This document shows positions 2,797 through 62,170 of a stretch of 64,000 nucleotides of DNA, piece by piece. The notes under the pieces are model-generated. The model saw only the letters and a program-made list of their open reading frames with translations. It was not told the DNA's origin and made no database searches. The stretch lies in assembly GCF_963921235.1 (NCBI RefSeq), contig NC_086108.1:54066001-54130000 (forward strand), given 5' to 3'. Origin of the DNA: Mobula hypostoma (lineage: Eukaryota). The first letter of the stretch is position 1. Each line of letters begins with the position of its first letter. The translations under genes and the position numbers were made by a program.

Positions 2797-2832
2797 AGTC
2801 GACGTTTTGGGCCGAGACCCTTCGTCAGGACT
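2797..2832 (-). ncRNA. Minimal hammerhead ribozyme motif, degenerate (GAAA to AAAA)
   Basis: Reverse complement AGTC CTGACGA AGGGTCTCGGCCC AAAAC GTC GACT. Confidence 0.6.

Positions 2833-3780: not shown

Positions 3781-3822
<42 letters not shown>
3781..3822 (+). repeat. (ATCT)n microsatellite within the PLE pseudo-LTR
   Basis: About 10 tandem ATCT units just after the PLE stop codon. Confidence 0.95.
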
Positions 3823-4093
3823 CTCCTCTCTCCCCCCCTCTTTTTTTTCCTCCCTCTGCCCCTCTCACTATAACTCTTTGCCTGCTCTCCATCTTCCTCT
3901 GGAGTTCCTCTCCCCCTTTCTTTCTCCCTAGGCTTCCCGTCCCATGATCCTCTCCCTTCTCCAGCCTTCTATCCATTTTGCCAATCGACTTTCTAGCTCT
4001 TAGTTCCATCCCTCCCCCTCCTGTCTTCTCCTATCATTTTGGATCTCCCCCTCTCCCCAACTTTCAAATCTCTTACTATCTCTTCTTTCAGTT

Positions 4094-4129
4094 AGTCCTG
4101 ATGAAGGGTCTCGGCTCGAAACGTCGACT
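4094..4129 (+). ncRNA. Minimal type I hammerhead ribozyme motif, core intact
   Basis: AGTC CTGATGA AGGGTCTCGGCTC GAAAC GTC GACT; helix I AGUC/GACU; predicted cut after 4125. Confidence 0.8.
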
Positions 4130-4310
4130 GTGCTTCTTCCTGTGGATGCTGAATGGTCTTAGCCTGTTCTCCCTGCAGCACAGGAGGCTAAGTGGTTACT
4201 TTATAAAATTATGAGGTGGAGAGTCGGTCTTTTTCCAAGAGTAGTGGAGTCTAAAATTGGAGTAAATAGGATCAAGGTGAGAAGAAAAATATTTAAAGGA
4301 GAAAATATTT

Positions 4311-4957
4311 AAAGGGGAGGGATAGAGCTAAGAGCTGGAAAGTTGATTGGCAAAAGGGATACAAGGCTGGAGAAGGGAGAGGATCATGGGACATGAGGCC
4401 TGGGGAGAAAGCAAAAGGCTATCCAGATGGAATATAAGGTGTTGTTCCTCCAACCTGAGTGTGGCTTCATCTTTACAGTAGAGGAGGCCGAGGAAAGACA
4501 TATCAGAATGGGAATGGGATGTGGAATTAAAATGTGTGGCCACTGGGAGATCCTGCTTTCTCTGGCGGACAGAGCGTAGGTGTTCAGCAAAACGATCTCC
4601 CAGTCTGCGTTGGGTCTTGCCAATATATAGAAGGCCACATATGGAGCACCGGACGCAGTATATTACCCCAGCCGACTCACAGGTGAAGTGTCACCTCACC
4701 TGGAAGGACTGTCTGGGGCCCTGAATGGTAGTGAGGGAGGAAGTGTACGGGCATGTGTAGCACTTGTTCCGCTTACAAGGGTAAGTGCTGGGAGGGAGAT
4801 CTCTTACTATTTCTTCTTTCAGTTAGTCCTGACAAAGGGTGTCGGCCCGAAACGTCGACTGTGCTTCTTCCTATGGATGCTGTCGGGCCTGCTGTGTTCC
4901 ACCAGCATTTTGTGTGTGTTGCTTGAATTTCCAGCATCTGCAGATTTCCTCTTCTTT
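4311..4957. mobile_element. Rearranged Penelope-like copy: GIY-YIG and pLTR piece on - (4311-~4798) joined to a + pLTR 3' end with tail; hammerhead motif at 4825-4860 is degenerate (CTGACAA)
   Basis: ORFs 4328..4543(-) and 4384..4638(-) match the PLE endonuclease; + tail 'gcttgaatttccagcatctgcagatttcc'. Confidence 0.9.
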
Positions 4958-12666: not shown

Positions 12667-12895
12667 TGCAATACACACAAAATGCTGGAGGAACTCAGCA
12701 GGCCAGGCAGCATCTATGGAAAAAAATTATAGTCGACATTTCGGGCCAAAACCCTTAGGTAGGACTGGAGAGAAAAGGCTGAGGAGTAGATTTCAAAGGT
12801 GGGGGAAGGGAGAGGAGAGAGAAACTCCAGGTGATAGGTGAAATCTGGAGGGGGAGGGATGAAGTAAAGAGCTGGGAAGTTGATTGGTGAAAGAA
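12667..12895 (-). mobile_element. Older Penelope pseudo-LTR fragment; degenerate hammerhead motif at 12731-12766
   Basis: 'aaaatgctggaggaactcagcaggccaggcagcatct...agtcgacatttcgggcc' is similar to the other pLTR copies. Confidence 0.75.
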
Positions 12896-15796: not shown

Positions 15797-15978
15797 GCAA
15801 CACACATAAAAGTTGCTGGTGAACGCAGCAGGCCAGGCAGCATCTCTAGGAAGAGGTACAGTCGATGCTTCGGGCCGAGACCCTTCGTCAGGACTAACTG
15901 AAGGAAGAACTAGTATCACCAGCAACTTTGATGTGTGTTGCTTGAATTTCCAGCATCTGCAGAATTCCTCGTGTTTGC
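15797..15978. mobile_element. Short Penelope pLTR-only insertion (inverted segment plus 3' tail) with an 11-bp TSD; degenerate hammerhead motif at 15860-15895(-)
   Basis: aaattggttaa at 15786-15796 and 15979-15989. Confidence 0.88.
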
Positions 15979-29002: not shown

Positions 29003-30022
29003 TAGTGTATTCTGGATAATTGGGACACATCAGGACCAATTTGCCCCAATTAAGTGGCTGGTCCAATGAGTTGAAATTTCATGGAAATAGTTAAAAAGTA
29101 TAAAAGTGTGTTTAAAAAAACTATTTAATAGAAATACAGAAAGAATGGAACACTGCCAATACTACTACAGTATAATAAAACTGTTAGTTCCTAATAGTGC
29201 AAACACGAGGAATTCTGCAGATGCTGGAAATTCAAGCAACACACATCAAAGTTGCTGGTGAATGCAGCAGGCCAGGCAGCATCTCTAGGAAGAGGTACAG
29301 TTGACGTTTTGGGCTGAGATCCTGACCAAAGGTCTGGGCCCGAAACATCGACTGTACCTCTTCCTAGAGATGCTGCCTGGCCTGCTGCGTTCACCAGTTC
29401 CTAATAGTTATTGAGGTAATAGTTCAGGCCTGCAATCTTTTGATTGTAAATGAACGAACTCAGTTCAGACAGCATCATGAGTGGACTGCCTCATTGCCTT
29501 CCTGCATAAAGTCAAACTTAAAAACCCAAAATAATCAAAAATCACTGCTTTTTGAATTGTCATCTGCCAGCCCAAATGGATAACAGAGCACAAACACATG
29601 CAACTGATGCTGTTTAAAAACTGTTCACTCCAAAATGTCAAAAAGCTGTTTCTGACATCTCCATGCCTGAATGCTTGAAACCACAATGAGCAAACCAGTT
29701 CTGAGTTGTCTTGCTGATTATTTCTTGCTAACTATCAGTGACAAAAATCACTGCTTTTTGAACATGAACACAATAATTTACTCTATTTTAAAAACAGTTC
29801 ACTCTAAGCACAGTGTATAGTCAAATGGCCACATAAGTGCCCATGACTGACATTAATTAGAAATTGTCTGGCAACAGAACTATGTCCCAATTAAGCGGCA
29901 TAGCATCCTAAACAATTGAAAGGAATCCCCAATATTTTCTCGATTAGTCTATTTCTTTAAGAGTTGTCCCAACTCAATGACTGTTCCATTTAATTGATAG
30001 CCCAATTAACCGGAATTGACTG
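29003..30022. mobile_element. Non-autonomous Tigger/pogo-like DNA transposon (TA TSD) containing a PLE insertion
   Basis: Imperfect TIRs 'tagtgtattctggataattggg' and 'cccaattaaccggaattgactg' flanked by TA. Confidence 0.7.
29199..29395. mobile_element. Short fold-back Penelope pLTR insertion with a 13-bp TSD; two partial, degenerate hammerhead motifs back to back
   Basis: agttcctaatagt at 29186-29198 and 29396-29408; inverted arms around ~29322. Confidence 0.88.
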
Positions 30023-30065: not shown

Positions 30066-31035
30066 TAATACACATAAAATGCTGGTGGAACGCAGCAGGC
30101 CAGACAACATCCATAGGAAGAAGCACAGTCAACGTTTTGGGCCGACACCCTTCGTCAGGACTAACTGAAAGAAAAGATAGTAAGAGATCTCCCTCCTGGC
30201 ACTTATCCTTGTAAGCGGAACAAGTGCTACACATGCCCTTACACTTCCTCCCTCACCACCATTCAGGGCCCCAGACAGTCCTTCCAGGTGAGGCGACACT
30301 TCACCTCTGAGTCGGCTGGGGTGATATACTGCGTCCGGTGCTCCCGATGTGGCCTTCTAATATTGGCGAGACCCGGCGCAGACTGGGAGATCGTTTCACT
30401 GAACACCTATGCTCTGTCTGCTAGAGAAAGCAGGATCTCCCAGTGGCCACACATTTTAATTCCACATCCCATTCCCATTCTGATAATGTCTATCCACAGC
30501 CTGCTCTACTGTCAAGATGAAGCCACACTCAGGTTGGAGGAACAACACCTTATATTCCGTCTGGGTAGCCTCCAACCCGATGGTATGAACATTAACTTCT
30601 CTAACTTCCGTTAATGCCCCTCCTCCCGTTCTTACCCCATCCCTTATTTATTTAGTTATCCTCTCTCTGTCCCTCTCACAATAACTCCTTGCCTGCTCTC
30701 CATCTTCCTCTGGAGCTCCCCTCCCCCTTTCTTTCTCCCTAGGTTTCCTGTCCCATGATCCTCTCCCTTCTCCAGCCTTGTATTCCTTTTGCCAATCAAC
30801 TTTCCCGCTCTTAGCGTCATCCCTCCCCCTCCTGTCTTCTCCTATCATTTCAGATCTCCCCCTCCCACTTTCAAATCTCTTACTATCTGTTCTTTCAGTG
30901 AGTCCTGACAAAGGGTCTCGGCCCAAAACGTTGACTGTGCTTCTTCTTATAGATGCTGTCTGGCCTGCTGTGTTCACCAGCATTTTGTGTGCGTTGCTTG
31001 AATTTCCAGCATCTGCAGATTTCCTCGTGTTTGCG
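30066..31035 (+). mobile_element. 5'-truncated Penelope-like element (linker + GIY-YIG + pLTR + tail) with an inverted 5' pLTR segment; hammerhead motifs at 30127-30162(-) and 30901-30936(+) are both degenerate
   Basis: 'RRHFTSESAGVIYCVRCSRCGLL', 'LEEQHLIFRLGSLQPDGMNINFSNFR*'; imperfect TSD gtggaataatta / gtggtataataatta. Confidence 0.92.
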
Positions 31036-35709: not shown

Positions 35710-36876
35710 GGTATTTCCTGTTTTCAGTTCCTTCATCTCTGCCACATCTGTTCTCAGGATGTGTCCTTCCTTTCCAGGACATCAGAACTGTCTTCCTTCT
35801 TCAAAGAATGGGATTTTCTATTCCACTATTGATGCTGTCCTCACCCGCATCTACTCCATTTCCCGAACATCTGCACTCACCCCATCTTCCTGCCACTTTA
35901 TCAGTGATAGAGTTCCTCTTCTCCTTACCTACTGCCCCTTGAGCTTCTGCATTAAACACATCATCCTCCGCAACTTCCGCCATCTCCAAAGGGATCTGAC
36001 AACAAACATATCTTTACCTCCCCCTCTCCCTCCACTTTCCACAGGAATCACTCTTTCCATGATTCCCTTGTCCATTTCTTCCTCTCCACTAATCTCCCTC
36101 CTGGCACGTATCCTGGAAGCAGTCTTAAGTGTTACACCTGCCCACTTACATCCTCCCTCGCCTCCATTCAGGGCCCCAAACAATTCCTCCAGATGAGGCA
36201 ACAATTCACATGCAAGTCTGCTGGGGTCGCCTGTTGCGTATGCTGCTCCTGATGCGACCTGCTGTACATTAGTGAGACCTGTCGTAAATTGGGGGAGCAC
36301 CTTGTCAAGCACCTCCGCTCCATCAGCCAAAAACAGAACTTCCTGGTGGTCATTTTAATTCCCAAACCTGCTCCAACAAGTTGGTCCGTGGCCTCCTCGT
36401 GTGCCAAGATGAGGCCACCTTCACAGGTGGGGAAGTAATACCTTGTATTCTGTCTGGGTAGCTTCCAACCTGGTGGCATGAATATTGATTTCTTCTTACA
36501 GTTAACAAAATACCCTCCAACTCCTCCTCCCCCTCCCCTCTTCTTCCATTCCCCACTCTGGCCTTTTACCTCTTGTCACCTGCTTATCATTTCCCACTGT
36601 GTCCCCTCCTTCTTCCCTTTATCTTATGGTCTGCTCTCCCTTCCTATCGGATTCCTTTCTTTCCTTTACCTTTCAACCCTTGACCTTTTGCACCCACTTG
36701 GCTTCACCTATCACCTTCCAGCTATCCTCTATGCCCTCCCCCCACCTTTTTATTCTGGTGTTTTCCCCCTTCCTTTTCAGTCCTGAAGAAGGGTCCAGCC
36801 TGAAGTATCTGCTTATTCATTTCCATGGATGCTGCCTGACTTGCTGAGTTCCTCCTGCATTTTGTGTGTGTGTTGT
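35710..36876 (+). mobile_element. Older, diverged Penelope-like element (thumb, GIY-YIG and pLTR); vestigial hammerhead motif at ~36779-36810
   Basis: 'STIDAVLTRIYSISRTSALTPSS...RVPLLLTY.PLS..IKHIILRNFRHLQRD'; 'agtcctgaagaagggtccagcctgaag'. Confidence 0.85.
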
Positions 36877-37499: not shown

Positions 37500-37939
37500 T
37501 ACAAACAAGAGAAAATCTGCAGATGCTGGAAATCCAAACAACACTCACAAAATGCTGAAGGAACTCAGCAGGCCAGGCAGCATCTCCGGAAAAGAGTACA
37601 GTCGACGTTTCGGGCCAAGACCTTTCATCAGGTTTGGAAAAAAAAGATGAGTCAGAGTATGAAAGTGGGGAAGGGGAGGAAGAACCACAAGGTGAAAGGT
37701 GAAACTGAGAGTGGGGAAGGGGTGAAGTAAAGTGCTGGAAGTTGATTGGTGAGAGAGATACCAGGTTAGAGTAGGGGTTTCACCCGTCACCTTGTGGCTC
37801 TTCCTCTACCCCCCCCCCACCTGTCTTACTCTGACTCCTCATTCATCCAGTCCTGATGAACGCCCGAAACGTCACCTGTACTCTTTTCCATAGATGCTTC
37901 CTGGCCTGCTGAGTTCCTGCAGCATTTTGTGTATGTTGC
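37500..37939. mobile_element. Inverted-pair Penelope pLTR insertion (older subfamily) with a probable 11-bp TSD; hammerhead motifs at 37600-37635(-, core intact, helix I broken) and 37849-37877(+, helix II deleted)
   Basis: tttggataagt at 37484-37494 and 37940-37950; tail on the left. Confidence 0.82.
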
Positions 37940-41598: not shown

Positions 41599-42441
41599 AA
41601 CACACATAAAAATTGCTGGTGAACGCAGCAGGCCAGGCAGCATCTATAAGAAGAGGTACAGTCGACGTTTTGAGCCGAGACCCTTCGTCAGGACTAACTG
41701 AAAAAAGAGATAGTAAGAGATTTGAAAGTGGGGGGGAGGGGGAGATCTGAAATGATAGGAGAAGACAGGAGGGCGAAGGGATGGAGCTGATAGCTGGAAA
41801 GTTGATTAGCAAAAGGGATGTGAAAGGATCATGGGACGGGAGGCCGAGGGAGAAAGAAAGGGGGAGGGGGGAAGCCCAGAGGATGGGCAAGGAGTACAGT
41901 GAGAGGGACAGGGAGAAAAAGGGGAGAGAGAGAGAGAAAAAAATAAATTAATTAAAAAACCTCCAACCTGATGGCATGAACATTGACTTCTCTAACTTCC
42001 GTTAATGCCCCACCTCCCCTTCGTACCCCATCCGTTATTTTCTCTCTCTCTCTCTCTCTCTCTTCCTCTCCCCCCCCCCCCTTTTTCTCCCTCTGTCCAT
42101 CTCACTCTACTCCTTGCCCATCCTCTGGGCTCTCCCCCTTTCTCCCTAGGCCTCCCGTCCCATGATTCTCTCATATCCCTTTCGCCAAATCAACTTTGCA
42201 GCTCTTAGCTCTATCCCTTTCCCCCTCCTGTCTTCTCCTATCATCTTGGATCTCCCCCTCCCCCTCCTACTTTCAAACCTCTTACTATCTCTTCTTTCAG
42301 TTAGTTCTGACGAAGGGTCTTGGCCCAAAACATAGTCTGTACCTCTTTCGATAGATGCTGTCTGGCCTGCTGCTTTCACCAGCAATTTTTATGTGTTTTG
42401 CTTGAATTTCCAGCATCAGCAGATTTCCTCATGTTTATGTC
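41599..42441 (+). mobile_element. Penelope insertion made of a nearly full inverted pLTR pair plus the last ~15 codons of the ORF; 11-bp TSD; hammerhead motifs at 41660-41695(-) and 42303-42338(+) are degenerate
   Basis: aataaaacagt at 41588-41598 and 42442-42452; LQPDGMNIDFSNFR* at ~41961-42005. Confidence 0.9.
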
Positions 42442-44084
42442 AATAAAACAGTTCCAGCTTCAGGATGAGAAATATAAATGAAGATTATTGCTCCTAATTA
42501 CAATGCAATTTGTAGAATAGGATGTGGATGTCGAGCAAGAGTAGAATTGGTTTTGGCAGCATTGTTCACTTCTTGCAGCCTCCATAATCCCTAGCTGACT
42601 GACGCTTGGTGAGTGTATTTACAAATAAACAATGACTAAAGGTCCAGAATGCCACAGGTACACTTTTAGAAGGGGGAAATTTTGTAAGAAGCAATTAAAC
42701 CAATAAGGCATTTTGACAAGAGAAATGATGAACGATCATAAATATTTGCATTAATACTTTTAAAATTTTGTGACACCTAGAGAGATTGCCTACAATTAAA
42801 GATGAGCTGCTCACAGGTCTGTCTTTGAGTTGCTGTCTGTTTGATGCTGTAGAATGGTAAAGCTGAGAGTCAAGTAGGGTAGATGCCATGTTGGGTTCTG
42901 AAATTGACCTATCTGACCTCAGTGGTCAGGAGGTGTGCTTTTCCTCGTAATTCTGGGCAAGTGCTAAACGTTTGTTTAGGCACCTGTGGAGTTTGTGAAG
43001 GAGAGCAGTTTGTTATTGTGGAGATACTGTGGTTGGAGCCAAGGTAACGCCTCATAGTTTTGTTTCACTTTTTCAAGCCAGTGTTATTAGGTAAAGGTAG
43101 TTCAGAGTTTTGACTTCCATTTATTTGAAGTATATTTTCCGGCAACAATGTTTCGTGTTTGCTTTAGGACATGGAGTCATACAGCATGCAAGCGCACCCT
43201 TCAGCTCACTGAATCCGGGCTGACCATCCAGCACTTATTTATGCTAATCAATCTTGCACTAAAGCCATTTTATTCCTTCTCCACATTCCCATCAACTCTT
43301 TCCATATTTTTCCACCTACCAAGTACTGTGGGCAACTTGCAGTGACCAATTAACCTCGAATCTCTCACATAATTGGAAAGTGGAAGGAATTGAACACAGT
43401 TATTGGGAGAAAGTGCAGACTCCACACAGACCCCACTGGAGCTGTGAGGTAACAACACTACCATCTGCACTGCTCGGCTGCCAAGCTGCACCTCTCTGCT
43501 ACTCACAATACTCTGTATAAAATTTGAACCACATAGATAAGGATTTTAATTTGGGAGTTTTTACCGGGCTATCTAATCTCACCCATGTGGAAGAGTTTTG
43601 AATTGGTTCCAGTGTTGTCAATTTAAGCAGTCAGTGTAAAGATCAGTTAGGTTTATCATCACCATCTAGTTTACATATGCAAGGATGTTTTGTCACAATC
43701 AAACAGTCCTTGGTCACAATGTCCCTCCAGACCATTTGATGAAGAATAACCATTGGACTACTGGAATCTAGTCAAGCATTGTCACTTTCTTAAAGAAAGA
43801 GAGAAAAGGAAGGGTTAAAATATTTACATTGATGAAAAGTATTGTTTTGCTTGTTAGCTTTAGCAGTGTTTGTGATTCTGTGATTAAAATTGAGATAAAA
43901 ATTGTGGCTTTTTACATAAGCAACATTTCCATGCTGAAGATTTGATAGTCAAATCAATGTTTTTTATTGCCATGGCAAAGCGAGATTGCAGATGCTGAGC
44001 TAACTGCGGGAAGAACAGTGGATCAGGCAGTGTCTGTGGAAAATAGATAGTCCATGTTTCAGGTCAAGGCTCTTCATTTGGAAT

Positions 44085-48437: not shown

Positions 48438-48803
48438 ATAGCAGCTAAAAAAAAAAGGAAGTCCATGTGAAAAGAGGAAACAATTCTCTTAAAGCAGCTC
48501 AAGGATAAAGTTAAATTTGGAAGTTTCAAGGGCTAATGATAGACCAGAAGAATGGGAATTTTTCAGGAACATCTTATAAGAAAGTATAGAGCTGGTTTTG
48601 AGGGAATTACCTAAATCTTGTATCAAAATAAGGTTTTCTCTGAATATATGAAAAGAAAGAGTATAGCTAAGGTAAGTAAGAGACCTTTAGGTAAAGAAGC
48701 TAGTGCATTAATAACAACTAGGAAACAGAAGTTATGTTAAAGCAACAACATCAAAGTTGCTGGAGAACGCAGCAGGCCAGGCAGCATCTCTAGGAGGAGG
48801 TAC

Positions 48804-48839
48804 AGTCGACGTTTCAGGCCGAGACCCTTCGTCAGGACT
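48804..48839 (-). ncRNA. Minimal type I hammerhead ribozyme motif, intact
   Basis: Reverse complement AGTC CTGACGA AGGGTCTCGGCCT GAAAC GTC GACT. Confidence 0.8.
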
Positions 48840-48892
48840 AACCGAAGGAAGAGCTAGTAAGAGAGCTCTTCTTACTTGCTCTTCCTTCAGTT

Positions 48893-48928
48893 AGTCCTGA
48901 CGAAGGGTCTCGGCCTGAAACGTCGACT
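48893..48928 (+). ncRNA. Minimal type I hammerhead ribozyme motif, intact
   Basis: AGTC CTGACGA AGGGTCTCGGCCT GAAAC GTC GACT; predicted cut after 48924. Confidence 0.8.
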
Positions 48929-50515
48929 GTACCTCCTCCTAGAGATGCTGCCTGGCCTGCTGCGTTCTCCAGCAACTTTGATGTTGTTGCTTGAATTTCC
49001 AGCATCTGCAGAATTCCTCGTGTTTATGTTATAGCATTTTGTTTTGAATCGTTATTCACTGTGGAGGATACTGCAGACAGCCAACTGTTAAAAGATGGGC
49101 TGGTTTCAAGTAGCATGGAAAAACTAGTTAAAATCCTCAGTCACAGAGACTAGGTCTTAGAGAAAAAACCTGTGGGGCAAAGTGTGGTCAAGTCACCAGG
49201 ACCGGATGGACTGCAGCCAAGAGTTTTCAAGGTAGTGGTTGTGGACTTAGTGACAGATCAGTTGAAGATTTTGTTGAACTTGTTGAATTCTGGGAGGGTA
49301 CAAATTGATTGAAAACAGCCAGTGAGGCTTCCTTATTCAAGAAGGAAATGAAGAGACAGATAACTACAAGCCAATCAATTTAACATCTATGGTTAGGAAG
49401 GTGCAAAGAGCAATGATTAAAAGAGATTCAGAAAGCCAATCATTTGTAGCATAGGAAGCAAACCATACTGGAATATCTTGAAGCATAGCTTTAACTTTGA
49501 TTGTACTTCAGTTGTATGTTAAATGTCATTTTGTCTTAATGGTTTTAGATGACTTAATGGTTCCTCCAGTATTGTGTGTGTGTTGCTTTATATTTAATGG
49601 TTTTGAAGTTTGTTTGTATTTTATACCATTATAGAAGAAGATGCTTTTGGAGGAATAGTTTCTTTTAAACTGATGCATAATCTTATAACTTGAGCTGTTT
49701 AGGTGGAACTAATTATTGTTAAACAAGAATGAGGAGACTCAAAATCAATAAGATACTCCGAAGCTCAATATTGCAAACAAAGGCTACTCATTCCAGTTAT
49801 CCCTCATCTCACTATAAAGCAGTAAGCTAAAACAAATAAAGCCTCCCTAGAAGTAAGTGATGAGGGAACTCTAGCTTTTTTTTAAGGAGAAAGGGACTTG
49901 TGATAATGTATGGGATTAAAAGTTAAAGGAGCTGACTGAGATCAAATACTTAATTTAAGCGACACTTTAATGTCTCAGGCTCATAGTTAGTGACTTAATT
50001 AGAAGGAAGGCTTTAGACTAAAATTGAACGATGGGAAATGAAAGATGCATGAACATTGCGGTAATTTCTTCAGAGTTGGAGAGGTACTGATAGTCAAGAC
50101 AATTCTGCACTTCCCACTTAATAAGCCTCAATAAGTGAAGGTTAATGAGTTATACAGCTCATCTGAGAAAAATAGATGTTGAATTTTTGTGTTTGCAAAC
50201 TGCGCGACAGCATTGCTATTAATAGAGAATATGAACTGGGAACATGAGATCTGAGTCCAGTGACATGACTGTAGGTTCAGAATGCTTGAAAGCAAGTGAG
50301 GAACAGGTGATTGACCTCCAAGAATGTGCTGCAGTACCAGCCAAAATAATAATTCCTTCATTAGGTGATCTTCCTGCTTTAACACTAAATTGTACAAGCT
50401 TCTGTTCGTGTGAAGATACATACAGCGTGAAGAACCTTTTACCTGACAATGATTTGAATGACTTAATGTAAGAACCCTATATTATGGAAGGAATATCTTT
50501 GTTGCATCATGTATA

Positions 50516-52836
50516 AATTGAATTGACTTTATTTCTTACATCACATACATGTGTAATTCACATGTGATGTGCGATTTACAGTAATTTGTGGTAAATAGTA
50601 TGTACAACCGGACAGAAATACAGTTGTATCAGCGTGAGTCAATCAGTCTGATGACTGGTGGAAGAAGCTGTCTCAGAGCCTGTTGGTCCTGGCTTTTATG
50701 CTGCGGTACCATTTCCCAGATGGTAGCAGGGCCCTTTTTACGCACCTCTCTCTGTGAATGTCCTGAATAGTTGGAAGTTCACATCTGCAGATGCGCTGGA
50801 CAGTTCGCACCACTCTCTGCAGAGTCCTGTGATTGAGGGAAGTACAGTTCGCATACCAGGCAGTGATGCAGCCAGTCAGGATGCTCTCATTTGTGCCCCT
50901 GTAGAGTCTTAGGATTTGGGGATCCGTGCCAAATTTCTTCAACTATCTGAGGTGAAAGAGGCGCTGTTGTGCCTTTTTCACCACACAGCCGGTATGTACA
51001 GACCACGTGAGATCCTTGGTGATGTTTATGCCGAGGAACATAAAGCTGTTTACCCTCTCAACCTCAGATCCATTGATGTCAATAGGGGTTAGCCTGTCTC
51101 CATTCCTCCTGTAGTCCACAACCAGCTCCTTTGTTTTTGCAGTGCTGAGAGAGAGGTTGTTTTCTTGACGCCACTGTGTCAGGGTGATGATTTCTTCTCT
51201 GTAGGCTGCCTCATTATTATTTGGGATTAGGCCAATCAGTGTAGTGTTGCCAGCAAATTTAATTAACAGATTGGAGCTGGGGGTGGCAACACAGTCATGG
51301 GTATACAGAGAGTAAAGGAGGGACCGGACACAGCCCTGAGGGACACCTGTGTTGGGGGTCAGAGGGACAGAGGTGAGGGAGCCCACTTACCACCTGCTGG
51401 CCATCGGACAGGAAGTCCAGGGTCCAGCTGTACAAGGCAGGGTGAACGCCAAGGTCTCTGAGCTTCTTGTCAAGCCTGGAGGGAATTAAGGTGTTGAATG
51501 CTGAACTGAAGTCCAAGAACAGCATTCTCAAATAAGCATCCTCCTTCTCCAGATGTGTAAGGATGGTGTGTAGAGCTGTGGCTATTGTGTCATCTGTCGA
51601 TCGGTTATGTTGATAGGCAAAATGTAGGGGGTTCAGTGTGGGTGGCAGCATGCCACAGATGTAGTCCTTGACCAGCCTCTCCAAGCATTTGCTTATTATT
51701 GAGGTGAGTGTGACAGGATGCCAGTTGTTCAGACATGTTACCTTGGTCTTTTTAGGTACAGGAACAATGGTGGATGTTTTGAAGCAGGAGGGCACTCTAT
51801 ATTGGGAAAAGGAGGGATTAAAAATGTCTGTAAACACACCTGTCAGTTGTGCTGCCCACATCCTGAGTACCCGCCCTGAGATGTCGTCCAGTCCCGCAGC
51901 CGTGCCACTGTCCACTCGTTGGAAACACCTGTGTACTTCAGCCTCAGAGATGACCAAGGTGCAGGTCGCTTCAGCGGCTCTCCTCAGGGGCTCAGTGTTG
52001 GTGACATTGAACTGAGTGTTAAAAAGATTGAGCTCATCTGGGAGAAAGGCAGCGACATTGGGAGCACCATCGCATTTAGCTTTGAAGTCTGCGATGGTGT
52101 ACAGACCTTGCCATAAGCAGCGTGTGTTGTTGGTGGAGAATTGTGTCTGCATCTTGTCCCTGTATTGTTGTTTCACTGCCTTAATGACTTTGCACAGATT
52201 GTAGCTGCATTTCTTGAGCTCCTGCTGATTACTGGCAACGTAAGCTCTGTCTCGCATGCTAAGTGCTGCTCGCATGGAACTGATGATCCAGAGTTTCTGG
52301 TTTGGATAGACCCTGACCGGTTTCTGGGGGACAACATCCTCAATACACTTTCAGATGAAACTCATGACTCCATCTGTGAACTTGGAGACATCCTCATCAC
52401 GAAAGATATTCCAGTTGACGTCATCAAAGCAGTCCCGTATCATGGAGACCCATTGATCAGACCAACAGTGGACGGTTTTAACTATGGCCACCTCTTGTTT
52501 CAGCTTCTGCCTGTACATCGGCAGCAGCAAAATAGAGGAGTGATGGATTTTGCAAATGGGAGGTGAAGGAGCGTTTTGTAAGTGTTGCGGAAGGGAGAGT
52601 AGCAGTGGTCGAGTATACTATCTCCCTGTGTGCTCATCTGGATGTGTTGACAAAACTTCAGAGACTTTAGACAGTGTATTAAAGTCTCCGGCGACAGTGA
52701 AGTCGGCCTCTGGGTGTGCATTCTCCAGGGTGCTGATGGTCTCGTACAGTTCGTTCAGAGCCAGGTCAGTATAAGCCTGGGGCGGAATATACACAGCTTT
52801 GATTATTGATGCTGTGCATTCAAAATGGCAGTCCAC
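50516..52836 (-). mobile_element. Rex1/Babar LINE, 5'-truncated, EN-RT pseudogene
   Basis: 'AVYIPPQA', 'VAGDFN', 'ILDHCY', 'KAAG.D'-like, 'FKTSTIVPVPKK', 'FLDFSSAFNT', 'GVPQGCV', 'IKFAGNTT' (FADD mutated), 'TGCITAWY'; AATAAA plus (CAATT)n tail. Confidence 0.93.
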
Positions 52837-54339
52837 CCTCAGTAGAATTGGACAAACCCTCTACTCTTCTCTCCGTTTTGAAGAAATATCACTGGATCAA
52901 AAACTTGGTTTCTCATTCCACAGATGCTGCTTGCCTGACTGAGCTCTTCCAGCATTTCTATTTTTATTTCAGGTTCCAACATCTGTACTTTTATTTGTTT
53001 TCCAGTCACTGGGGTAGTTTGATGAAATAGGGCTAGTGGCTTAATAGTTATTTGTGTTCCTCCTGGCTTCTTGCAATGACAGCAAGTTACTCTCAAGTTC
53101 AATCCCAAGCCAAGCTTCAGAGTGCAGCAAGCGCAGCTGGTCAGAGTTGAAGTTGGATCATATATACTGTAAATCCACCTTCAATTTCATTTCTTATGCC
53201 GTCCCATGAACGTCTGGGAAGCTGTCTTGGAATGTAAGGCGTGATCCATATAGATTAAAGAATGTGGGAGAATTGGCTGGCTTTGAGATTTTAAAAAAAA
53301 TCACTGTTACTTTTTGAAAGAAAATCATCCTTGTATGTTGGGTTAAAATCTTTTGCTAAATTCGCAACTGCAGTAATGCTGCAAAGAATACTGAAGAAGC
53401 TTTTAAGACTGAAATAGATTCTGCTGATGTGGCAAATTAATGAGATTTTCTTTGCCCGTTTGAAAGTTGCCTTGTGAGAGATTGCTTTTCGCTGCCACCA
53501 CACAAGTCATATTAATCTGTCGTTAAGCTTCTGAGGGAATGGTGTTACTTTTGGGGGTGAGCAAGAATCCTTCCTTGGTAGCAGTTTTTCCCATCACCTG
53601 TTTGGAAGTTTGGGTGAAGCTACTCTGTTCGCTGCTGATAGCATTTCAGTAAATGCACTATGCCCGATATTCTGTGACCCAGTGCTTGACGATACTGCTC
53701 CGCATGTACAAACAGTAAGTTATTTGGCTGCGTTTACAATTGAAACTGGAAAAAAAACCTGCAAGTGCCTCCTGAAATTGATGGATCCTAAATGAGCTGT
53801 TGAAGTATTAATGTATTGTGGAAAACTGGTTGTTACCAGACCCCTCCACACCTTTGGGACACTTTCTTCGCTGTCTATAATGGTCCTACCCGTTATTTCA
53901 TCCTCCATCGGATCCATGCCTGCAATTGTCGTTTTTTTGACTTTGTCATGTTAGGCAAAGAACACAAGATCCTACATCTGCGGACCCCAGAGCCTGCTGG
54001 CCCTGAAACTAGCAGGCATGAACTTCAGATGGCCTCTGCCATTGATCTCGCCAGCTCCAACACCTCAGGGCATATTCAAAACCCGGACTCCAGCAACGAC
54101 CATGGACACATTCAAAGCGATTGTGCAACCACCAACTGCGACTCCAGCCTTGAACTCCAGGTCGGGTCTTTATGTGCTGCTGTTGTGACTCCCGTCTCCC
54201 CTTCCCCCACCACCACTCTGCAATCCTGTCTCCCTCAGATCCCATCGTCAGCTCCTGGGTACTCAGAGGCTCCATCTTCCTCTCACCCCAACCCTCCCCT
54301 CTCCACTGACACCCCCAGCCTCCCCCCTCCCCTCCTCTG

Positions 54340-56556
54340 ATCCCAGCTGTCATCCGTGCCGGGTCTTTACCATCCCCTCCGACCTTCAACTGTCGGAGGC
54401 AGAACGCTCTGTCCTCAGTAAGGTCTTCACCTTTGTACCCCTTCGCCCACACCTCAGCGAGTTCTGTGTTCGCCATGATGTGGTACTCTTCTTCCGCCGT
54501 CTCCGAACCTACTTCTTCGGCAAGGACTCTTCCACCCCCACCGATGACCCCTTCTCCCGTCTTCAACCCTCCTCTTCTTCATGGACACCCCGCTCTGGTC
54601 TTCTGCCTGCTCTGGATCTCTTTATTGCTAACTGCCAACGGGACATCAACCGTCTCGACTTCACCGTACCTTGTTCCCATTCCAACCTTACTCCTTCCGA
54701 ACGCTCTGCTCTCCACTCCCTCCGCACTAATCCTAACCTTACTATTAAACCCGCCGATAAGGGGGGTGCTGTTGTAGTCTGGCGTACTGACCTCTACCTT
54801 GCCGAGGCACAGCGACAACTCGCGGATACCTCCTCTTATTTACCCCTCGATCGTGACCCCATAAAGGAGCACCAGGCCATTGTCTTCCACACCATCACCG
54901 ACTTTATCCGCTCAGGGGATCTCCCATCCCCTGCTACCAACCTTATAGTTCCCACACTTCGCACTTCCCGTTTCTACCTCCTACCCCCTACCCAAGATCC
55001 ACAAACCTGCCTGTCCTGGCAGACCTATTGTCTCAGCTTGCTCCTGCCCCACTGAACTCGTTTCTGCACACCTCGACGCGGTTTTATCCCCCCTTGTTCA
55101 ATCCCTTCCTACCTATGTTTGTGACACTGCTCACGCTCTTAAACTTTTCGATGATTTTAAGTTCCCTGGCCCCCACCGCTTTATTTTCACCATGGATGTC
55201 CAGTCCCTATATACTTCCATCCCCCATCAGGAAGGTCTCAAAGCTCTACGCTTCTTTTTGGATTCCAGACCTAATCAGTTCCCCTCTACCACCACTCTGC
55301 TCCGTCTAGCAGAATTAGTCCTTACTCTTAATAATTTCTCCTTTGGCTCCTCCCATTTCCTCCAAACTAAAGGTGTAGCGATGGGCACCTGTATGGGTCC
55401 TAGCTATGCCTGCCTTTTTGTTGGGTTTGTGGAACAATCTATGTTCCGAACCTATTCTGGTATCTGTCCCCCACTTTTCCTTCGCCACATCGACGACTGC
55501 ATTGGCGCTGCTTCCTGCACGCATGCTGAGCTCGTTGACTTTATTAACTTTGCCTCCAACTTTCACCCTGCCCTCAAGTTTACCTGGTCCATTGCTGACA
55601 CCTCCCTCCCCTTTCTAGATCTTTCTGTCTCTATCTCTGGAGACAGCTTATCCACTGATGTCTACTATAAGCCTACTGACTCTCACAGCTATCTGGACTA
55701 TTCCTCTTCTCTCCCTGTCTCTGGCAAAAATGCCATCCCCTTCTTGCAATTCCTCCGCCTCTGCCACATCTGCTCTCAGGATGAGGCTTTTCATTCCAGG
55801 ACAAGGGAGATGTCCTTTTTTAAAGAAAGGGGCTTCCCTTCCTCCACCATCAACTCTGCTCTCAAACGCATCTCCCCCATTTCACGCATATCTGCTCTCA
55901 CTCCATCCTCCCGCCACCCCACTAGGAATAGGGTTCCCCTGGCCCTCACCTACCACCCCACCAGCCTCCGGGTCCAACATATTATTCTCCGTAACTTCCA
56001 CCACCTCCAACGGGATCCCACCACTAAGCACATCTTTCCCTCCCCTCGCCTCTCTGCTTTCTGCAGGGATCGCTCCCTACGTGACTCCCTTGTCCAGTCG
56101 TTCCCCCCCCCCCCATTCCTCCCCACTGATCTGCCTCCTGGCACTTATCCTTGTAAGCGGAACAAGTGCTACACATGCCCTTACAGTTCCTCCCTTACCA
56201 CCATTCAGGGTCCCAGACAGACCTTCCAGGTGAGACGACACTTCACCTGTGAGTCGGCTGGGGTGATATACTGCGTCCGGTGCTCCCAATGTGGCCTTCT
56301 ATATATTGGCGAGACCCGGCGCAGACTGGGAGACCGTTTTGCTGAATACCTATGCTCTGTCCGCCAGAGAAAGCAGGATCTCCCAGTGGCCACACATTTT
56401 AATTCCACATCTCATTCCCATTCTGACATGTCTATCCACGGCCTCCTCTACTGTAAAGATGAAGCCACACTCAGGTTGGAGGAACAACACCTTATATTCC
56501 ATCTGGATAGCCTCCAACCTGATGGCATGAACATTGACTTCTCTAACCTCTGCTAA
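54340..56556 (+). pseudogene. PLE reverse transcriptase-GIY-YIG endonuclease polyprotein, frameshifted (~54983-54990 and upstream); last 454 aa open
   Basis: ORFs 54480..55055 and 55192..56556 lie in different frames; RT YIDD reads HIDD; the EN His seen in other copies (FAEH) reads FAEY. Confidence 0.9.
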
Positions 56557-56848
56557 TGCCCCACCTCCCCCTCGTTTCCCATCCGTTATTTATTTTTATA
56601 CACACATTCTTTCTTTCTCTCTCCTTTTTCTCTCTCTGTCCCTCTGACTATACCCCTTGCCCATCCTCAGGGTTTCTCTCCCCCCCACTTGTCTTTCTCC
56701 CCAGGCCTCCTGTCCCATGATCCTCTCATATCCCTTTTGCCAATCACCTGTCCAGCTCTTGGCTCCGTTCCTCCCCCTCCTGTTTTCTCCTATCATTTTG
56801 GATCTCCCCCTCCCACTTTCAAATCTCTTACTAACTCTTCCTTCAGTT

Positions 56849-56884
56849 AGTCCTGACGAAGGGTCTCGGCCTGAAACGTCGACT
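56849..56884 (+). ncRNA. Minimal type I hammerhead ribozyme motif in the pLTR of the near full-length PLE, intact
   Basis: AGTC CTGACGA AGGGTCTCGGCCT GAAAC GTC GACT; predicted cut after 56880. Confidence 0.82.
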
Positions 56885-57916
56885 ATACCTCTTCCTAGAG
56901 ATGCTGCCTGGCCTGCTGTGTTCACCAGCAACTTTGATGTGTGTGTTACAAACATAGTTGTTTTCATAATTGACCCACATTGAACTGTATTGCTGAGAAA
57001 CTATTAAACTGAGAATCAAGGAATGGAATAAATAAGCTGAGCAATAAATGAAATTGGTACAAACTTTAAAGATAAAGGATTTTTTTCTTTTCTCCTTGTA
57101 TTACCTGAATGAATGGAATGCAAAGGACAGGGGGAAATAAGTTAAATTACAGGAGTCTCCCCCACTGCACGATCCATGTTGCTGTTCCTCCGAATGGTTC
57201 ATAAGCTGGACAGTTTGCAAATCAGAACTGAAGCTGGAAACCAAGTCAGCAGCAGCCGGCAAATCCTTTCTGCCAAGTGTTATTCATTTGTTTCAGCTGT
57301 ACGTAAGTCGGGTGTTCTTAAACTGGGGAGGACCCGCACATTTTTAGAAAAACTAATTAGAAATATTTAAGGCAAACTTCAGTGTCTAAAGGTGCAACAT
57401 GTTGGAGATGCAGCAACTATAATTTATGACCCAACAGAGATGCACGCTCGGCAATCTGCAATTCTGTGTCCCTCAGCACCGGATTTACTTCATGATTGGT
57501 TTGCCCTGCATTTAAAGATGTGTTACTTAAACTGATACATTTCACCATTACTTGAGATGAAGATGCGGAGCCTATACATTTCCCTTTTTCCCTTCAGTGG
57601 TTAAATCTAATGGATAATTCAATTGCCTTGATCATGAGCTAACTTCTTCATGTGTATTATATCGTCTGTACTGAACATTCATTGGGAGTGGATGGATTAT
57701 AACTTTCCATTTATGATGAGCTACTGACTCTTACTGCTAGCAAATACACTCATAGGTCGCTTTGTTAGATACCTCCTGTACCTAATGAGGTGGCTGCCAA
57801 GTGTATGTTCAGGGCTTTCTGCTGCTGTATCCCATCCACCTCAAGGTTCAACGTCCTGTGCGTTCAGAGATGCTCTTCTGCACAACACTGTTGTAACTCG
57901 TCGTCATTTGAATTAC

Positions 57917-58437
57917 AAACAACAGGAATTCTGCAGATGCTGGAAATTCAAGCAACACACATCAAAGTTGCTGGTGAACGCAGCAGGCCAGGCAGCAACT
58001 CTAGGAAGAGGTGCAGTCGACGTTTCAGGCCGAGACCCTTCGTCAGGACTAACTGAAGGAAGAGTGAGTAAGAGATTTGAAAGTGGGAGGGGGAGGGGGA
58101 GATCCAAAATGATAGGAGAAGACAGGAGGGGGAGGGATGGAGCCAAGAGCTGGACAAGTGATTGGCAAAAGGGATACGAGAGGATCATGGGACAGGAGGT
58201 CCGGGAAGAAAGACGGGGGGGGGGGAACCCAGAGGATGGGCAAGGGGTATATTCAGAGGGACAGAGGGAGAAAAAGGAGAGTGAGAGAAAGAATGTGTGT
58301 ATAAAAATAAGTAACAAATCTCTTACTCACTCTTCCTTCAGTTAGTCCTGACAAAGGGTCTCGGCCTGAAACGTCGACTGCACCTCTTCCTAGAGATGCT
58401 GCCTGGCCTGCTGCATTTACCAGCAACTTTGATGTGT
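57917..58437 (-). mobile_element. Young Penelope solo pLTR with an inverted segment (58317-58437) and a 14-bp TSD
   Basis: gtcatttgaattac at 57903-57916 and 58438-58451; close match to 56590-56945. Confidence 0.93.
58015..58050 (-). ncRNA. Minimal type I hammerhead ribozyme motif, intact; its partner at 58344-58379(+) has CTGACAA
   Basis: Reverse complement AGTC CTGACGA AGGGTCTCGGCCT GAAAC GTC GACT. Confidence 0.8.
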
Positions 58438-59259
58438 GTCATTTGAATTACTGTCACTTACCTGTCAGCCTGAATTAGCCTGCCTATTCTCCTCTGACCT
58501 GTCTCATTAACAAGATGTTTTCGCCAACAGAACTGCTGCTCGCTGGATGTTCTTTGTTTTTTGCACCATTCTCTGTAAACTCTACAGATGATTGTGTATG
58601 AAAATCCCAGGAGATCAGCAGTTTCTGAAATAGCTCAAACCACCCTGTCTGGCACCAGCAAACATTCCGCAGTCAAAGTCACTTAGACCACAATTTTTCC
58701 TCGTTCTGATATTTGGTCTGAACAACAACTAAACATCTTGACCATGTCTGCATGCTTTAAGCATTGAGTTGTCACCACACGATTGGCTGATTAGGTATTT
58801 GCATTAACGAGTAGGTGTACAGGTGTACCTAATAAAGTGGCCTCTGAGCGTGTATCACAATGGGCTTGTCTATTCCTGATCCAACAGTAACAATATTTTG
58901 GTGTCAGGGGCAAATCCAATCAAAAATCATCACAGAGGCATGTAGAGCAAGCTCTGCCTATAAAACGTGTGAAAAATTGTTTACAGCTAATGAAACTACA
59001 TCCACAAACATTGAATGTTTGTGTGGGTCCTTGATACCGAAGAATTCATTTACCAAACCTAAAGTGTTATGTCACCTAAATAGTTTTAGATAACAGAAAT
59101 TATTGAAGCAAATTCTAAAGTGTAAATTACATTTCATTTGTTCCTCTCAAGTCAAATAACGCACTCTATTCTGTGCAAGGCTCCTCCGCATAACATAGAA
59201 TAGTACAGCACAGTACAGGCCCTTCAGCCCACAATGTTGTGCCGACCCTCAGACCCTGC

Positions 59260-62170
59260 CTCCCATATAACCTCCCCACCTTAATTTCCTCTATATACCT
59301 GTCTAGTAATCTCTTAAACTTCTCTAGTGTATCTGCCTCCACCACTGACTCAGGAAGTGCATTCCATGCACCAACCACTCTCTGAGTAAAAAACCTTCAT
59401 CTAATACCCCCCTTGAACTTCCCACCCCTTACCTTAAAGCCATGCCCTCTTGTATTGAGCAGTGGTGCCCTGGGGAAGAGGCGCTGGCTATCCACTCTGT
59501 CTATTCCTCTTATTATCTTGTACACCTCTATCATGTCTCCTCTCATCCTCCTTCTCTTCAAAGAGTAAAGCCCTAGCTCCCTTAATCTCTGCTCATAATG
59601 CATACTCTCTAAACCAGGCAGCATCCTGGTAAATCTCCTCTGTACCCTTTCCAATGCTTCCACACCCTTCCTATAGTGAGGCGACCAGAACTGGACACAG
59701 TACTCCAAGTGTGGCCTAACCAGAGTTTTATAGAGCTGCATCATTACATCACGACTCTTAAACTCTATCCCTCGACTTATGAAAGCTAACACCTCATGAG
59801 CTTTCTTAACTACCCTATCCACCTGTGAGGCAACTTTCAGGGATCTGTGGACATGTACCCCCAGATCCCTCTGCTCCTCCACACTACCAAGTATCCTGCC
59901 ATTTACTTTGTACTCTGCCTTGGAGTTTGTCCTTCCAAAGTGTACCACCTCACACTTCTCCGGGTTGAACTCCATCTGCCACTTCTCAGCCCACTTCTGC
60001 ATCCTATCAATGTCTCTCTGCAATCTTTGACAATCCTCTACACTATCTACAACACCACCAACCTTTGTGTCGTCTGCAAACTTGCCAACCCACCCTTATA
60101 CCCCCACATCCAGGTCGTTAATAAAAATCATGAAAAGTAGAGGTCCCAGAACAGATCCTTGTGGGACACCACTAGTCACAATCCTCCAATCTGAATGTAC
60201 TCCCTCCACCACAACCCTCTGCCTTCTGCAGGCAAGCCAATTCTGAATCCACCTGGCCAAACTTCCCTGGATCCCATACCTTCTGACTTTCTGAATAAGC
60301 CTACTGTGTGGAACCTTGTGAAATGCCTTACTAAAATCCATATAGATCACATCCACTGCACTACCCCCATCTATATGCCTGGTCACCTCCTCAAGGAACT
60401 CTATCAGGCTTGTTAGACACGATCTGCCCTTCACAAAGCCATGCTGACTGTCCCTGATCAGACCATGATTCTCTAAATGCCTATAGATCCTATCTCTAAG
60501 AATCTTTTCCAATAGCTTTCCCACCACAGACATAAGGCTCACTGGTCTATAATTATCCGGACTATCCCTACTACCTTTTTTGAACAAGGGGACAACATTC
60601 GCCTCCCTCCAGTCCTCCGGTACCATTCCCGTGGACAACGAGGACATAAAGATCCTAGCCAGAGGCTCAGCAATCTCTTCCCTCGCCTCATGGAGCAGCC
60701 TGGGGAATATTCCGTCAGGCCCCAGGGACTTATCCGTCCAAATATATTTTAACAACTCCAACACCTCCTCTCCCTTAATATCAACATGGTCTAGAACATC
60801 AACCTCACTCATATTGTCCTCACCATCTTCAAGTTCCCTCTCATTGGTGAATACCGAAGAGAAGTATTCATTGAGGACCTCACCCACTTCCATAGCCTCC
60901 AGGCACATCTTCCCACCTTTATCTCTAATCAGTCCTACCTTCACTCCTGTCATCCTTTTTTTCTTCACATAATTGAAGAATGCCTTGGGGTTTTCCTTTA
61001 CCCTACTCGCCAAGGCCTTCTCATGCCCCCTTCTTGCTCTTCTCAGCCCCTTCTTAAGCTCCTTTCTTGCTTCCCTATATTCCTCAATAGACCCATCTGA
61101 TCCTTGCTTCCTAAACCTCATGTATGCTGCCTTCTTCCACCTGACTAGATTTTCCACCTCACTTGTCACTCATGGTTCCTTCACCCTACCATTCTTTATC
61201 TTCCTAACCGGGACAAATTTATCCCTGACGTCCCGCAAGAGATCTCGAAACATCGGCCACATGTCCATAGTACGTTTCCCTGCAAAAACATCATCCCAAT
61301 TCACACCCGCAAGTTCTAGCCTTGTAGCCTCATAATTTGCCCTTCCCCAATTAAACATTTTCCTGTCCTCTCTGATTCTATCCTTTTCCATGATAATGCT
61401 AAAGGCCAGGGAGTGGTGGTCACTGTCCCCCAGATGCTCACCCACTGAGAGATCTGTGACCTGACCCGGTTCATTACCTAGTACTAGATCTAGTATGGCA
61501 TTCCCCCTAGTCGGCCTGTCCACATACTGTGACAGGAATCTGTCCTGGACGCACTTAACAAACTCTGCCCCATCTAAACCCTTGGAACTAATCAGGTGCC
61601 AATCAATATTAGGGAAGTTAAAGTCACCCATGATAACAACCCTGTTATTTTTGCACCTTTCCAAAATCTTCCTCCCAACCTGTTTCTCTGTATCTCTGCT
61701 GCTACCAGGGGGCCTATAGAATACCCCCAGTAGAGTAACTGCTCCCTTCCTGTTCCTGACTTCCCCCTGTACTGACTCAAAAGAGGATCCTGCTACATTA
61801 CCCACCCTTTTTGTAGCTGTAATAGTATCCCTGACCAGTAATGCTACCCCTCCTCCCCTCCCCCCCCCACCCCTATCACTTTAAAGCACTGAAATCCAGG
61901 AATATTGAGAATCCATTCCTGCCCTGGTGCCAGCCAAGTCTCTTTAATGGCCACTACATCATAATTCCATGTATGTATTCAAGCTCTCAGTTCATCACCT
62001 TTGTTCCTGATGCTTCTTGCATTGAGGTACACACACTTCAGCCCTTCTACCTTACTACCTTTACACCCTTTATTCTGCTTCGCTTTCCTCATAGCCTCTC
62101 TATATGTTAGATCTGGCTTTACTCCATCCACTTCTCTCACTGCCCTATCGCTCCGGGTCCCATCCCCTTT
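59260..62170 (-). pseudogene. CR1 ORF2: APE endonuclease plus reverse transcriptase, interrupted
   Basis: 'GLKCVYLNARSIRNK', 'GVFYRPP', 'IMGDFNFP', 'ILDLVL', 'LGDSDH', 'DNYRPVSL', '[10 protein letters not shown]', 'YMDFSKAF', '[10 protein letters not shown]', KFADDTK (~60063-60083), 'VRPHLEYC'; stops at 61170 and 60096. Confidence 0.95.

Follow-up and report, generated by a model that had tools for sequence, protein, structure and literature searches.

A minimal hammerhead motif in the terminal repeat of an abundant Penelope-like element of Mobula hypostoma

The stretch of DNA analysed here, called the window throughout, comprises 64,000 nucleotides (nt) of the Mobula hypostoma genome (contig NC_086108.1, forward strand, positions 54,066,001 to 54,130,000). 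At 53837..56947 (+) it carries a copy of a Penelope-like element (PLE) with an open reading frame (ORF) for a reverse transcriptase (RT) and a GIY-YIG domain. Near the 3′ end of this copy, at 56849..56884 (+), direct reading, pattern searches and a structural descriptor all point to a 36-nt minimal type I hammerhead ribozyme (HHR) motif, which stands 293 nt 3′ of the stop of the ORF and 63 nt 5′ of the 3′ end of the unit. The tail that follows, 56885..56947 (+), forms the rest of a 99-nt HHR-plus-tail module; it is common to the older subfamilies of the element, between which it has diverged further than the HHR.

The ORF, at 54189..56556 (+), is split between two frames, 54189-55055 and 54949-56556, by a single frameshift near 54980-55005. 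The copy is 5′-truncated at about 53837, and it lacks the leader of about 410 nt and the upstream pseudo-long terminal repeat (pseudo-LTR) of fuller copies, as well as a tail extension of about 35 nt. In the frame at 54949-56556, matches to RVT_1 (residues 73-185) and then GIY-YIG (residues 438-512) were both weak and below the Pfam cut-off. Homologues of the ORF at E ≤ 0.001 number 706, many of them with PF00078 and PF01541 and the best at E = 2.8e-220; the best named homologues are from rays (76-91% identity) and sharks (60-69%), and full-length homologues of 800-930 residues are collinear over 54320-56550. Domains, homologues, pseudo-LTR, inverted partners and tail together bear out the Penelope-like host named in a preliminary description of the window, and as a class the endonuclease-bearing (EN+) PLE is well founded. 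The translation also has a C-x4-C-x2-C linker between the RT and endonuclease domains, about 30 residues before GIY-YIG. A CX2-5CxxC linker motif is assigned to the Neptune and Nematis clades in the available part of Craig et al. 2021 (PMC8557442), and from this motif we infer a Neptune/Nematis type placement.

The fuller organisation was taken from 31 long copies (one of which, L004, served as reference, while 29 were aligned to it and L128 gave no alignment). Eight of the 31 have a direct upstream pseudo-LTR with its own hammerhead, so that pseudo-LTR copies carry a second motif in the leader, some 590 nt upstream of the probable start codon. The extension past the usual 3′ end was common to about 23 of 35 young copies and was confined to one arm in three of four head-to-head pairs examined; examples lie at 48985-49020 in the window and from L104:7517 onward. 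Head-to-head arms make up 25 of the 48 young arms (at least 88% identity). Among neighbouring modules no more than 400 nt apart in 1.064 Mb (the window plus a random genome sample of 100 × 10 kb from 18 contigs), 20 of 23 pairs were head-to-head, at most three were on the same strand and none were tail-to-tail. In the text of Craig et al. 2021 that is available (PMC8557442), the structural signature of PLEs consists of partial tandem copies, a truncated partner in inverted orientation and a tail of 30-40 bp on one side.

The motif reads AGTC-CTGACGA-A-GGGTCTCGGCCT-GAAAC-GTC-GACT. Helix I pairs 56849-56852 with 56881-56884 (AGUC/GACU) over 4 base pairs (bp), and a fifth pair is possible at 56848/56885. 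The hammerhead core CUGACGA (C3-A9) occupies 56853-56859 and is followed at 56860 by an extra A, between A9 and position 10.1, which recurs in 140 of 141 copies of the module. Helix II (56861-56864 with 56869-56872, 4 bp) is capped by the tetraloop CUCG at 56865-56868, and G12, A13 and A14 lie at 56873-56875. The next four letters, A15.1-C15.2-G16.2-U16.1 at 56876-56879, are the palindrome ACGU, which stands in for helix III and has no loop 3. C17 is at 56880, and the predicted cut falls between 56880 and 56881, the bond that the preliminary description had also picked out. Hence the conserved core C3 U4 G5 A6 N7 G8 A9...G12 A13 A14 A15.1...U16.1 H17 is complete at 56853-56859 and 56873-56880, and the topology is that of two helices around a core that is open at helix I. 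In this model helix III would be beyond the reach of a monomer; two strands could form it in a domain-swapped arrangement, in which case both helices I would be intermolecular.

Minimal hammerheads (min-HHRs) with an extra nucleotide between 9 and 10.1 and a palindromic 15.2-16.2 are known from the pseudo-LTRs of metazoan PLEs, where they show low in vitro activity, and that as dimers only (Cervera and de la Pena 2014, PMC4209133). A 2019 review, in the part available, sums up the class in the same terms (PMC6765202). To judge from its letters and its place, the 36-nt motif is a genuine member of this known class of helix-III-less type I hammerheads of Penelope pseudo-LTRs. The preliminary description had likewise proposed a minimal type I motif in a pseudo-LTR with a loop-less ACGU for helix III, which fits the class of Cervera and de la Pena. 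The annotation itself is ordinary, being a known motif in a known element class; the setting is a cartilaginous fish and a very high copy number.

The motif recurs throughout the window. A search for the 36-mer with up to three mismatches, set against 100 shuffles as background, gave 10 matches where 0.00 were expected: the exact 36-mer is found again at 48804(-), 48893(+) and 58015(-), and versions with one to three mismatches lie at six sites, 2797(-), 4094(+), 4825(+), 15860(-), 41660(-) and 58344(+). The core pattern CTGAYGA-N13-GAAAC was matched six times against an expectation of 0.05. A local-alignment scan recovered all sites of the preliminary description but 37849 and added a very decayed copy at 44049(-), giving 20 motif copies in the window (the preliminary description spoke of about 18 and listed 19 places). 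We then applied a generic min-HHR descriptor that holds no helix letters of this family (CTGANGA, helix II of at least 3 bp, GAAA, a palindromic helix III of 2, 4 or 6 nt, T-H, and helix I of at least 4 bp). In the window it passed exactly the five copies previously called intact, 4094+, 48804-, 48893+, 56849+ and 58015-. Over the 1.064 Mb it passed 26 sites, all of the same Penelope-like family, and none in each of five block-shuffles. The defects in the remaining copies are mostly CpG transitions, among them G8A, G12A, G16.2A and C17U.

The family is highly abundant. Exact 28-nt cores (Y at N7 and 11.1) number 55,586 in the 3.48-Gb genome of the animal itself, against none for the reversed control, with U at 11.1 in 46,306 of them and C in 9,280. 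Modules covering the motif start were counted 122 times in the random 1 Mb, and 19 such rows came from the window. By extrapolation there are some 4 × 10^5 module copies genome-wide, about 7 × 10^4 of which would pass the descriptor (21 of the 26 passes lie in the random sample). Contigs of runs X1, X2, X19 and X20, from four coded organisms, hold thousands of pieces of the 56700-56947 module at 85-100% likeness, which suggests that the family is common to several related species or samples.

The genomic copies also record which RNAs were copied. Were cut RNA the template, DNA copies would start at 56881 or end at 56880. The 48 young arms show no such pattern: 17 exceed 250 nt in length, another 22 start at 56800-56855, one starts at 56880 and five start at or after 56885, so that only one of the 48 starts within 56878-56884. 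Among 234 high-scoring segment pairs, 106 have the normal 3′ end, three end at 56884 and none ends at the cut site; we read the three at 56884 as alignment breaks or truncated copies. At the upstream motif, none of the eight pseudo-LTR 5′ ends lies within 3 nt of the cut site, and six of the eight copies hold the whole upstream HHR. Since the copy ends miss the cut site, the templates were uncut at both the upstream and the downstream motif, which argues that cutting, if any, is off the path to new copies. This agrees with in vitro work on the Poseidon element of Anolis, in which, according to the portion of Frangieh 2024 available (PMC11167929), protein was needed for cleavage, insertion was normal in ribozyme mutants, and none of the public RNA-seq reads had an end at the cut site.

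A separate feature of the young arms is that short copies often begin at the 5′ edge of the HHR. Of the 48, ten have their start within 56846-56855, with six at precisely 56850 (L015:7485, L053:6595, L091:5360, L105:5732, L104:864 and L036:3548), and in four of these the DNA upstream is unrelated. This peak matches neither the cut site nor the pseudo-LTR starts. We considered 56849/56850 as a transcription start, because the TTAGTCC there is similar to an initiator motif, and set the idea aside when the eight pseudo-LTR 5′ ends were found to fall elsewhere.

A further candidate was an ORF starting just after the cut site, as in Anolis. It was rejected, since in two fuller copies the frame from the ATG 21 nt past the cut closes within about 16 codons. 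In L004 (reverse strand) and L008, both fuller copies, the leader also has, about 60-460 nt past the upstream cut site, a frame that is open for about 130 codons and ends at a stop common to both; it could be a small upstream ORF or chance.

We consider it likely that the motif is a minimal hammerhead in the PLE terminal repeat, predicted to cut after C56880 only when two copies pair and probably with the aid of the element's protein. As proposed for min-HHRs, two motifs would pair in a domain-swapped manner, the ACGU of one strand with the ACGU of the other, while the helix I 5′ strand of one motif would pair with the 3′ strand of the other to give two active sites. Cutting would be inefficient or limited to a share of the transcripts; it could serve, for instance, to free or restrict read-through RNA or to produce a message, while the RT would copy uncut RNA from the 3′ tail.

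Several results weigh against an active hammerhead of this kind, and we gather them here. The Rfam covariance models, a search proposed in the preliminary description, returned no hammerhead family at the gathering score or at E ≤ 10; the miss is expected, because the Rfam hammerhead models include helix III and the motif is without it, but it is still a failed test. Folding with nearest-neighbour energies is unfavourable too. The 38-nt monomer prefers a rod in which the core GACG is paired with CGUC (-11.3 kcal/mol), and although a double-hammerhead dimer can be drawn, it reaches -12.1 kcal/mol against -22.6 kcal/mol for two rod-like monomers and -30.9 kcal/mol for the best dimer. A 124-nt arm folds no better than its shuffles (z = 0.37). 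Partners for a double hammerhead are also scarce: close same-strand neighbours account for at most three of 23 close pairs, and two sense motifs occur only in pseudo-LTR-bearing masters, about 3.5 kb apart. Read-through of most genomic copies would bring together one sense and one antisense motif, and hence a hairpin rather than a double hammerhead. Furthermore, the commonest form of the core has G.U at 10.1-11.1 (or A-U if the extra A pairs) and not G-C.

The patterns of conservation and decay belong to the same account. The helices do not covary, each pair having 0-4 compensatory cells of 141, and the stems are invariant between subfamily majorities. When 139 copies were clustered by their tails into four groups (57, 18, 7 and 7 copies), the subfamily majorities differed at 2-4 of 36 HHR positions and at 10-20 of 63 tail positions, yet only one of three comparisons was significant (Fisher p = 0.20, 0.19 and 0.03). 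A CpG-decay test rested on the expectation that TG and CA arise in equal numbers from each CpG of the motif, except where one of the two is spread or removed; with selection on active masters, the harmless product should outnumber the harmful one. Genome-wide, the exact copies number 5,050 for C7U, 3,029 for G8A, 4,208 and 5,662 for the TG and CA forms of the loop, 4,530 for C15.2U, 5,377 for G16.2A and 2,326 for G12A (C11.1 background). No ribozyme-specific depletion is seen in these decay classes: G16.2A, predicted to be harmful, is not rarer than C15.2U, and G8A is the lowest of the half-CpG classes. Because the loop control is itself uneven and G16.2A is not depleted, we take the counts to reflect decay after insertion and to be silent on selection.

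The last of these adverse points concerns the core. In 13 of 141 copies the core A6 is replaced by C, so that the core is incomplete there. About nine of the 13 have a loop variant and an upstream flank in common and thus form a subfamily, marked by a UUCG-type loop 2, with loci that include 12731-12766 (-) in the window, L081:2630, L097:4955 and L057:5606. Its exact 28-mer occurs 71 times genome-wide, compared with 383 for the same background with A6; 71 is too many for independent decay, and we conclude that a coherent A6-to-C subfamily has been amplified. A6 is reportedly needed for hammerhead catalysis.

Other aspects of the same comparison fit a hammerhead, if modestly. The majority differences lie mostly at N7, loop 2, 11.1 and H17, all of which are free under the hammerhead model; 10.2 and 15.2 are further differences in one cluster of only seven old copies. 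No alignment of the subfamilies is possible upstream of 56849. In the contigs of the four coded runs, similarity stops exactly at 56849 on one side and at 56884 on the other, and variants at 10% or more occur inside the motif only at N7, loop 2, 11.1 and CpG sites. Thus core nucleotides are conserved across subfamilies, A6-to-C apart, while helix covariation, which the preliminary description had also looked to as a mark of a working ribozyme, is absent. Its broader claim, that the family processes its own tandem or read-through transcripts by cleavage, is not supported, in view of copies that are uncut at the site, the amplified A6-to-C subfamily and the lack of covariation. The usual hypothesis for the class holds that transcripts are processed by cleavage; the tests run here give it no support.

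The strongest alternative, which we nevertheless think unlikely, is that a hammerhead-derived motif is no longer a ribozyme in this lineage and is kept, together with its tail, as a 3′ RNA module recognised by the RT/endonuclease, or is simply hitch-hiking. Such a loss would account readily for templates that are all uncut, for the amplification of the A6-to-C subfamily, for a commonest subfamily without G10.1-C11.1, for predicted-harmful CpG products that are not depleted and for the disfavoured active fold. It would also suit the finding that the whole 99-nt module, rather than the HHR alone, is common to the subfamilies. In the text of Craig et al. 2021 that is available (PMC8557442), HHRs are described as possible parasites of PLEs, with Naiads thriving without them. 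What a lost ribozyme explains less well is that no subfamily majority has lost any of the 13 other core letters, with most changes at the free positions, and that the HHR block has sharp edges and has changed less than the tail next to it. Moreover, the Anolis PLE hammerhead does cleave when protein is present, as far as the accessible part of that report goes (PMC11167929).

A related proposition is that hammerhead cutting lies outside the copy-making path here and is perhaps dispensable, the motif being kept for another job. We regard this as possible, if rather doubtful; dispensability is suggested by the uncut templates, by an A6-to-C subfamily at tens of thousands of copies and by the weakened 10.1-11.1 pair of the top subfamily. 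As one candidate for the other job, the motif could be a folded landmark for the Penelope enzyme, at which it would bind, halt or change strands; this would also explain why young short copies start so frequently at the very 5′ edge of the motif (56850).

It is very improbable that the short HHR units are animal non-LTR retrozymes, that is, non-coding tandem units that are cut by the hammerhead, circularised and copied by the PLE enzyme. Most copies are indeed short (about 95-135 nt) and non-coding, and retrozymes related to pseudo-LTRs are reported in one cartilaginous fish in the portion available of a preprint (Li, Clavereau and Pollet 2026). However, the 1.064 Mb hold no tandem arrays and the close pairs are mostly head-to-head, the ends of the units fall elsewhere than at the cut site, and the short units match the 3′ end of the coding element collinearly and have the same tail extension. 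Finally, chance resemblance of these letters to a hammerhead within a repeat can be given virtually no weight, for although the lack of an Rfam match and of covariation would suit it, the descriptor found 26 real matches and none in five shuffles, the pattern expectations were 0.05 and 0.00, and the motif occupies the very place known for the class, a PLE pseudo-LTR.

The other copies in the window have a common 3′ end, at reference positions 56940-56950, and variable 5′ ends, and eight or nine of them stand head-to-head with a short inverted arm. The intact copies at 48804..48839 (-) and 48893..48928 (+) occupy the left arm (48748-48864) and the right arm (48870-48984) of one head-to-head mini-palindrome, the right arm being the one with the tail extension; a weak match to mir-4667 at 48820-48912 is this palindrome of 48748-48984. 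The intact copy at 58015..58050 (-) lies in the longer left arm (57955-58315) of a pair whose short right arm (58315-58439) holds the G8A copy at 58344..58379 (+). The fifth intact copy, 4094..4129 (+), has U7 and a G-U at 10.2/11.2 in helix II and ends a 1.3-kb arm (2856-4159), against which abuts a short inverted arm (2738-2856) with a G12A copy at 2797..2832 (-).

More altered copies lie at 4825..4860 (+), with G8A and a loop change; 15860..15895 (-), altered at 15.1 and 16.2; 30127..30162 (-), with G12A and C17U; 30901..30936 (+), with G8A, G12A and C17U; and 41660..41695 (-), with G12A. At 37600..37635 (-) the core is intact and helix I is broken, and at 37849..37877 (+) helix II is deleted. 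Decayed copies are found at 12731..12766 (-), from the subfamily with C at A6, at 36779..36813 (+), from an old subfamily with A at N7, and at 42303..42338 (+); the very decayed copy missing from the preliminary list occupies 44049..44084 (-). Two overlapping partial copies, 29299-29323 (-) and 29320-29353 (+), form a palindrome whose junction falls inside the HHR.

Head-to-head mini-palindromes occur at 48748-48984, the 58315 junction, 29239-29397, 30070-30995 and 41600-42396, in each case as 3′-module arms joined at their 5′ ends with a hammerhead in each arm. Some are equal-armed (reference 56824/56826, elsewhere 56850/56852) and look like products of snap-back or two-sided priming. The weak Rfam matches to microRNA and small nucleolar RNA models are palindromes or low-complexity junctions of inverted arms; at 41883-42106, where a GA/CT-rich palindromic stretch joins two inverted arms, weak matches to plant microRNA models are chance hits to low-complexity hairpins. 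Two further loci hold other retroelement sequences: three adjoining ORFs at 59397-61880 (-) with Exo_endo_phos and RVT_1 matches, a LINE-type (long interspersed nuclear element) retrotransposon unrelated to the motif, and an ORF at 51295-52350 (-) with an RVT_1 match (E = 3.5e-10), another RT remnant.

Our literature searches found no description of this lineage's version; Lunse et al. or the supplements of the 2026 preprint could hold a closer precedent. For the in vivo role of Penelope hammerheads, transcript processing was proposed in 2014, and cleavage was found dispensable for insertion in the in vitro work of 2024. Tens of thousands of young, near-identical copies make a large natural record of which RNAs got copied, and this record, with templates uncut at both motifs and the A6-to-C form spread, narrows the possible roles of the ribozyme. 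It also singles out an organism and a sequence from which much could be learnt by end-specific RNA sequencing.

Among known systems, the PLE hammerheads of Lunse, Weinberg and Breaker, with a short or absent stem III and activity as dimers, can be likened to the motif by their title and by what is available of the 2019 review (PMC6765202). Animal non-LTR retrozymes are also the subject of Cervera and de la Pena 2020 (PMC7229834). As far as the available part of the preprint describes them (Li, Clavereau and Pollet 2026), they have in common with our copies a type I hammerhead and a short non-coding unit related to PLE pseudo-LTRs; they form head-to-tail arrays, whereas close pairs here are head-to-head, without an array in 1.064 Mb. 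The Poseidon element PAc of Anolis carolinensis is, in the accessible text of Frangieh et al. 2024 (PMC11167929), likewise a PLE with a pseudo-LTR hammerhead and the insertion tail signature, and its unprocessed RNA is inserted with no sign of cut ends; here the same is read from genomic copies alone. The two differ in layout, since the PAc ORF, in that text, begins inside the hammerhead and is cut 26 bp past its start codon, and here the motif precedes the likely start by about 590 nt and follows the stop by 293 nt. The C-x4-C-x2-C linker is also a Neptune/Nematis feature and not one of Penelope/Poseidon, going by the available part of Craig et al. 2021.

The closest likeness is to the PLE min-HHRs of Cervera and de la Pena 2014 (PMC4209133). 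Common to both are the type I form with a full core, a short helix I (4-5 bp), an unpaired nucleotide between A9 and 10.1, the lack of helix III and loop 3, the palindromic 15.2-16.2, the pseudo-LTR site, a massive copy number, and copies that are mostly single or on opposite strands 100-700 bp apart. Helix II has 4 bp here and 7-8 bp in the Schistosoma min-HHRs, and the 10.1-11.1 pair, a ‘highly conserved’ G-C in that study, is G.U or A-U in the dominant subfamily here. Variability of the motif is low here and extreme there. The host is a cartilaginous fish, a group that is not among the hosts in that study, and its 55,586 exact cores compare with about 4,000 motifs in the coelacanth and about 9,000 in Xenopus, the richest vertebrates reported there.

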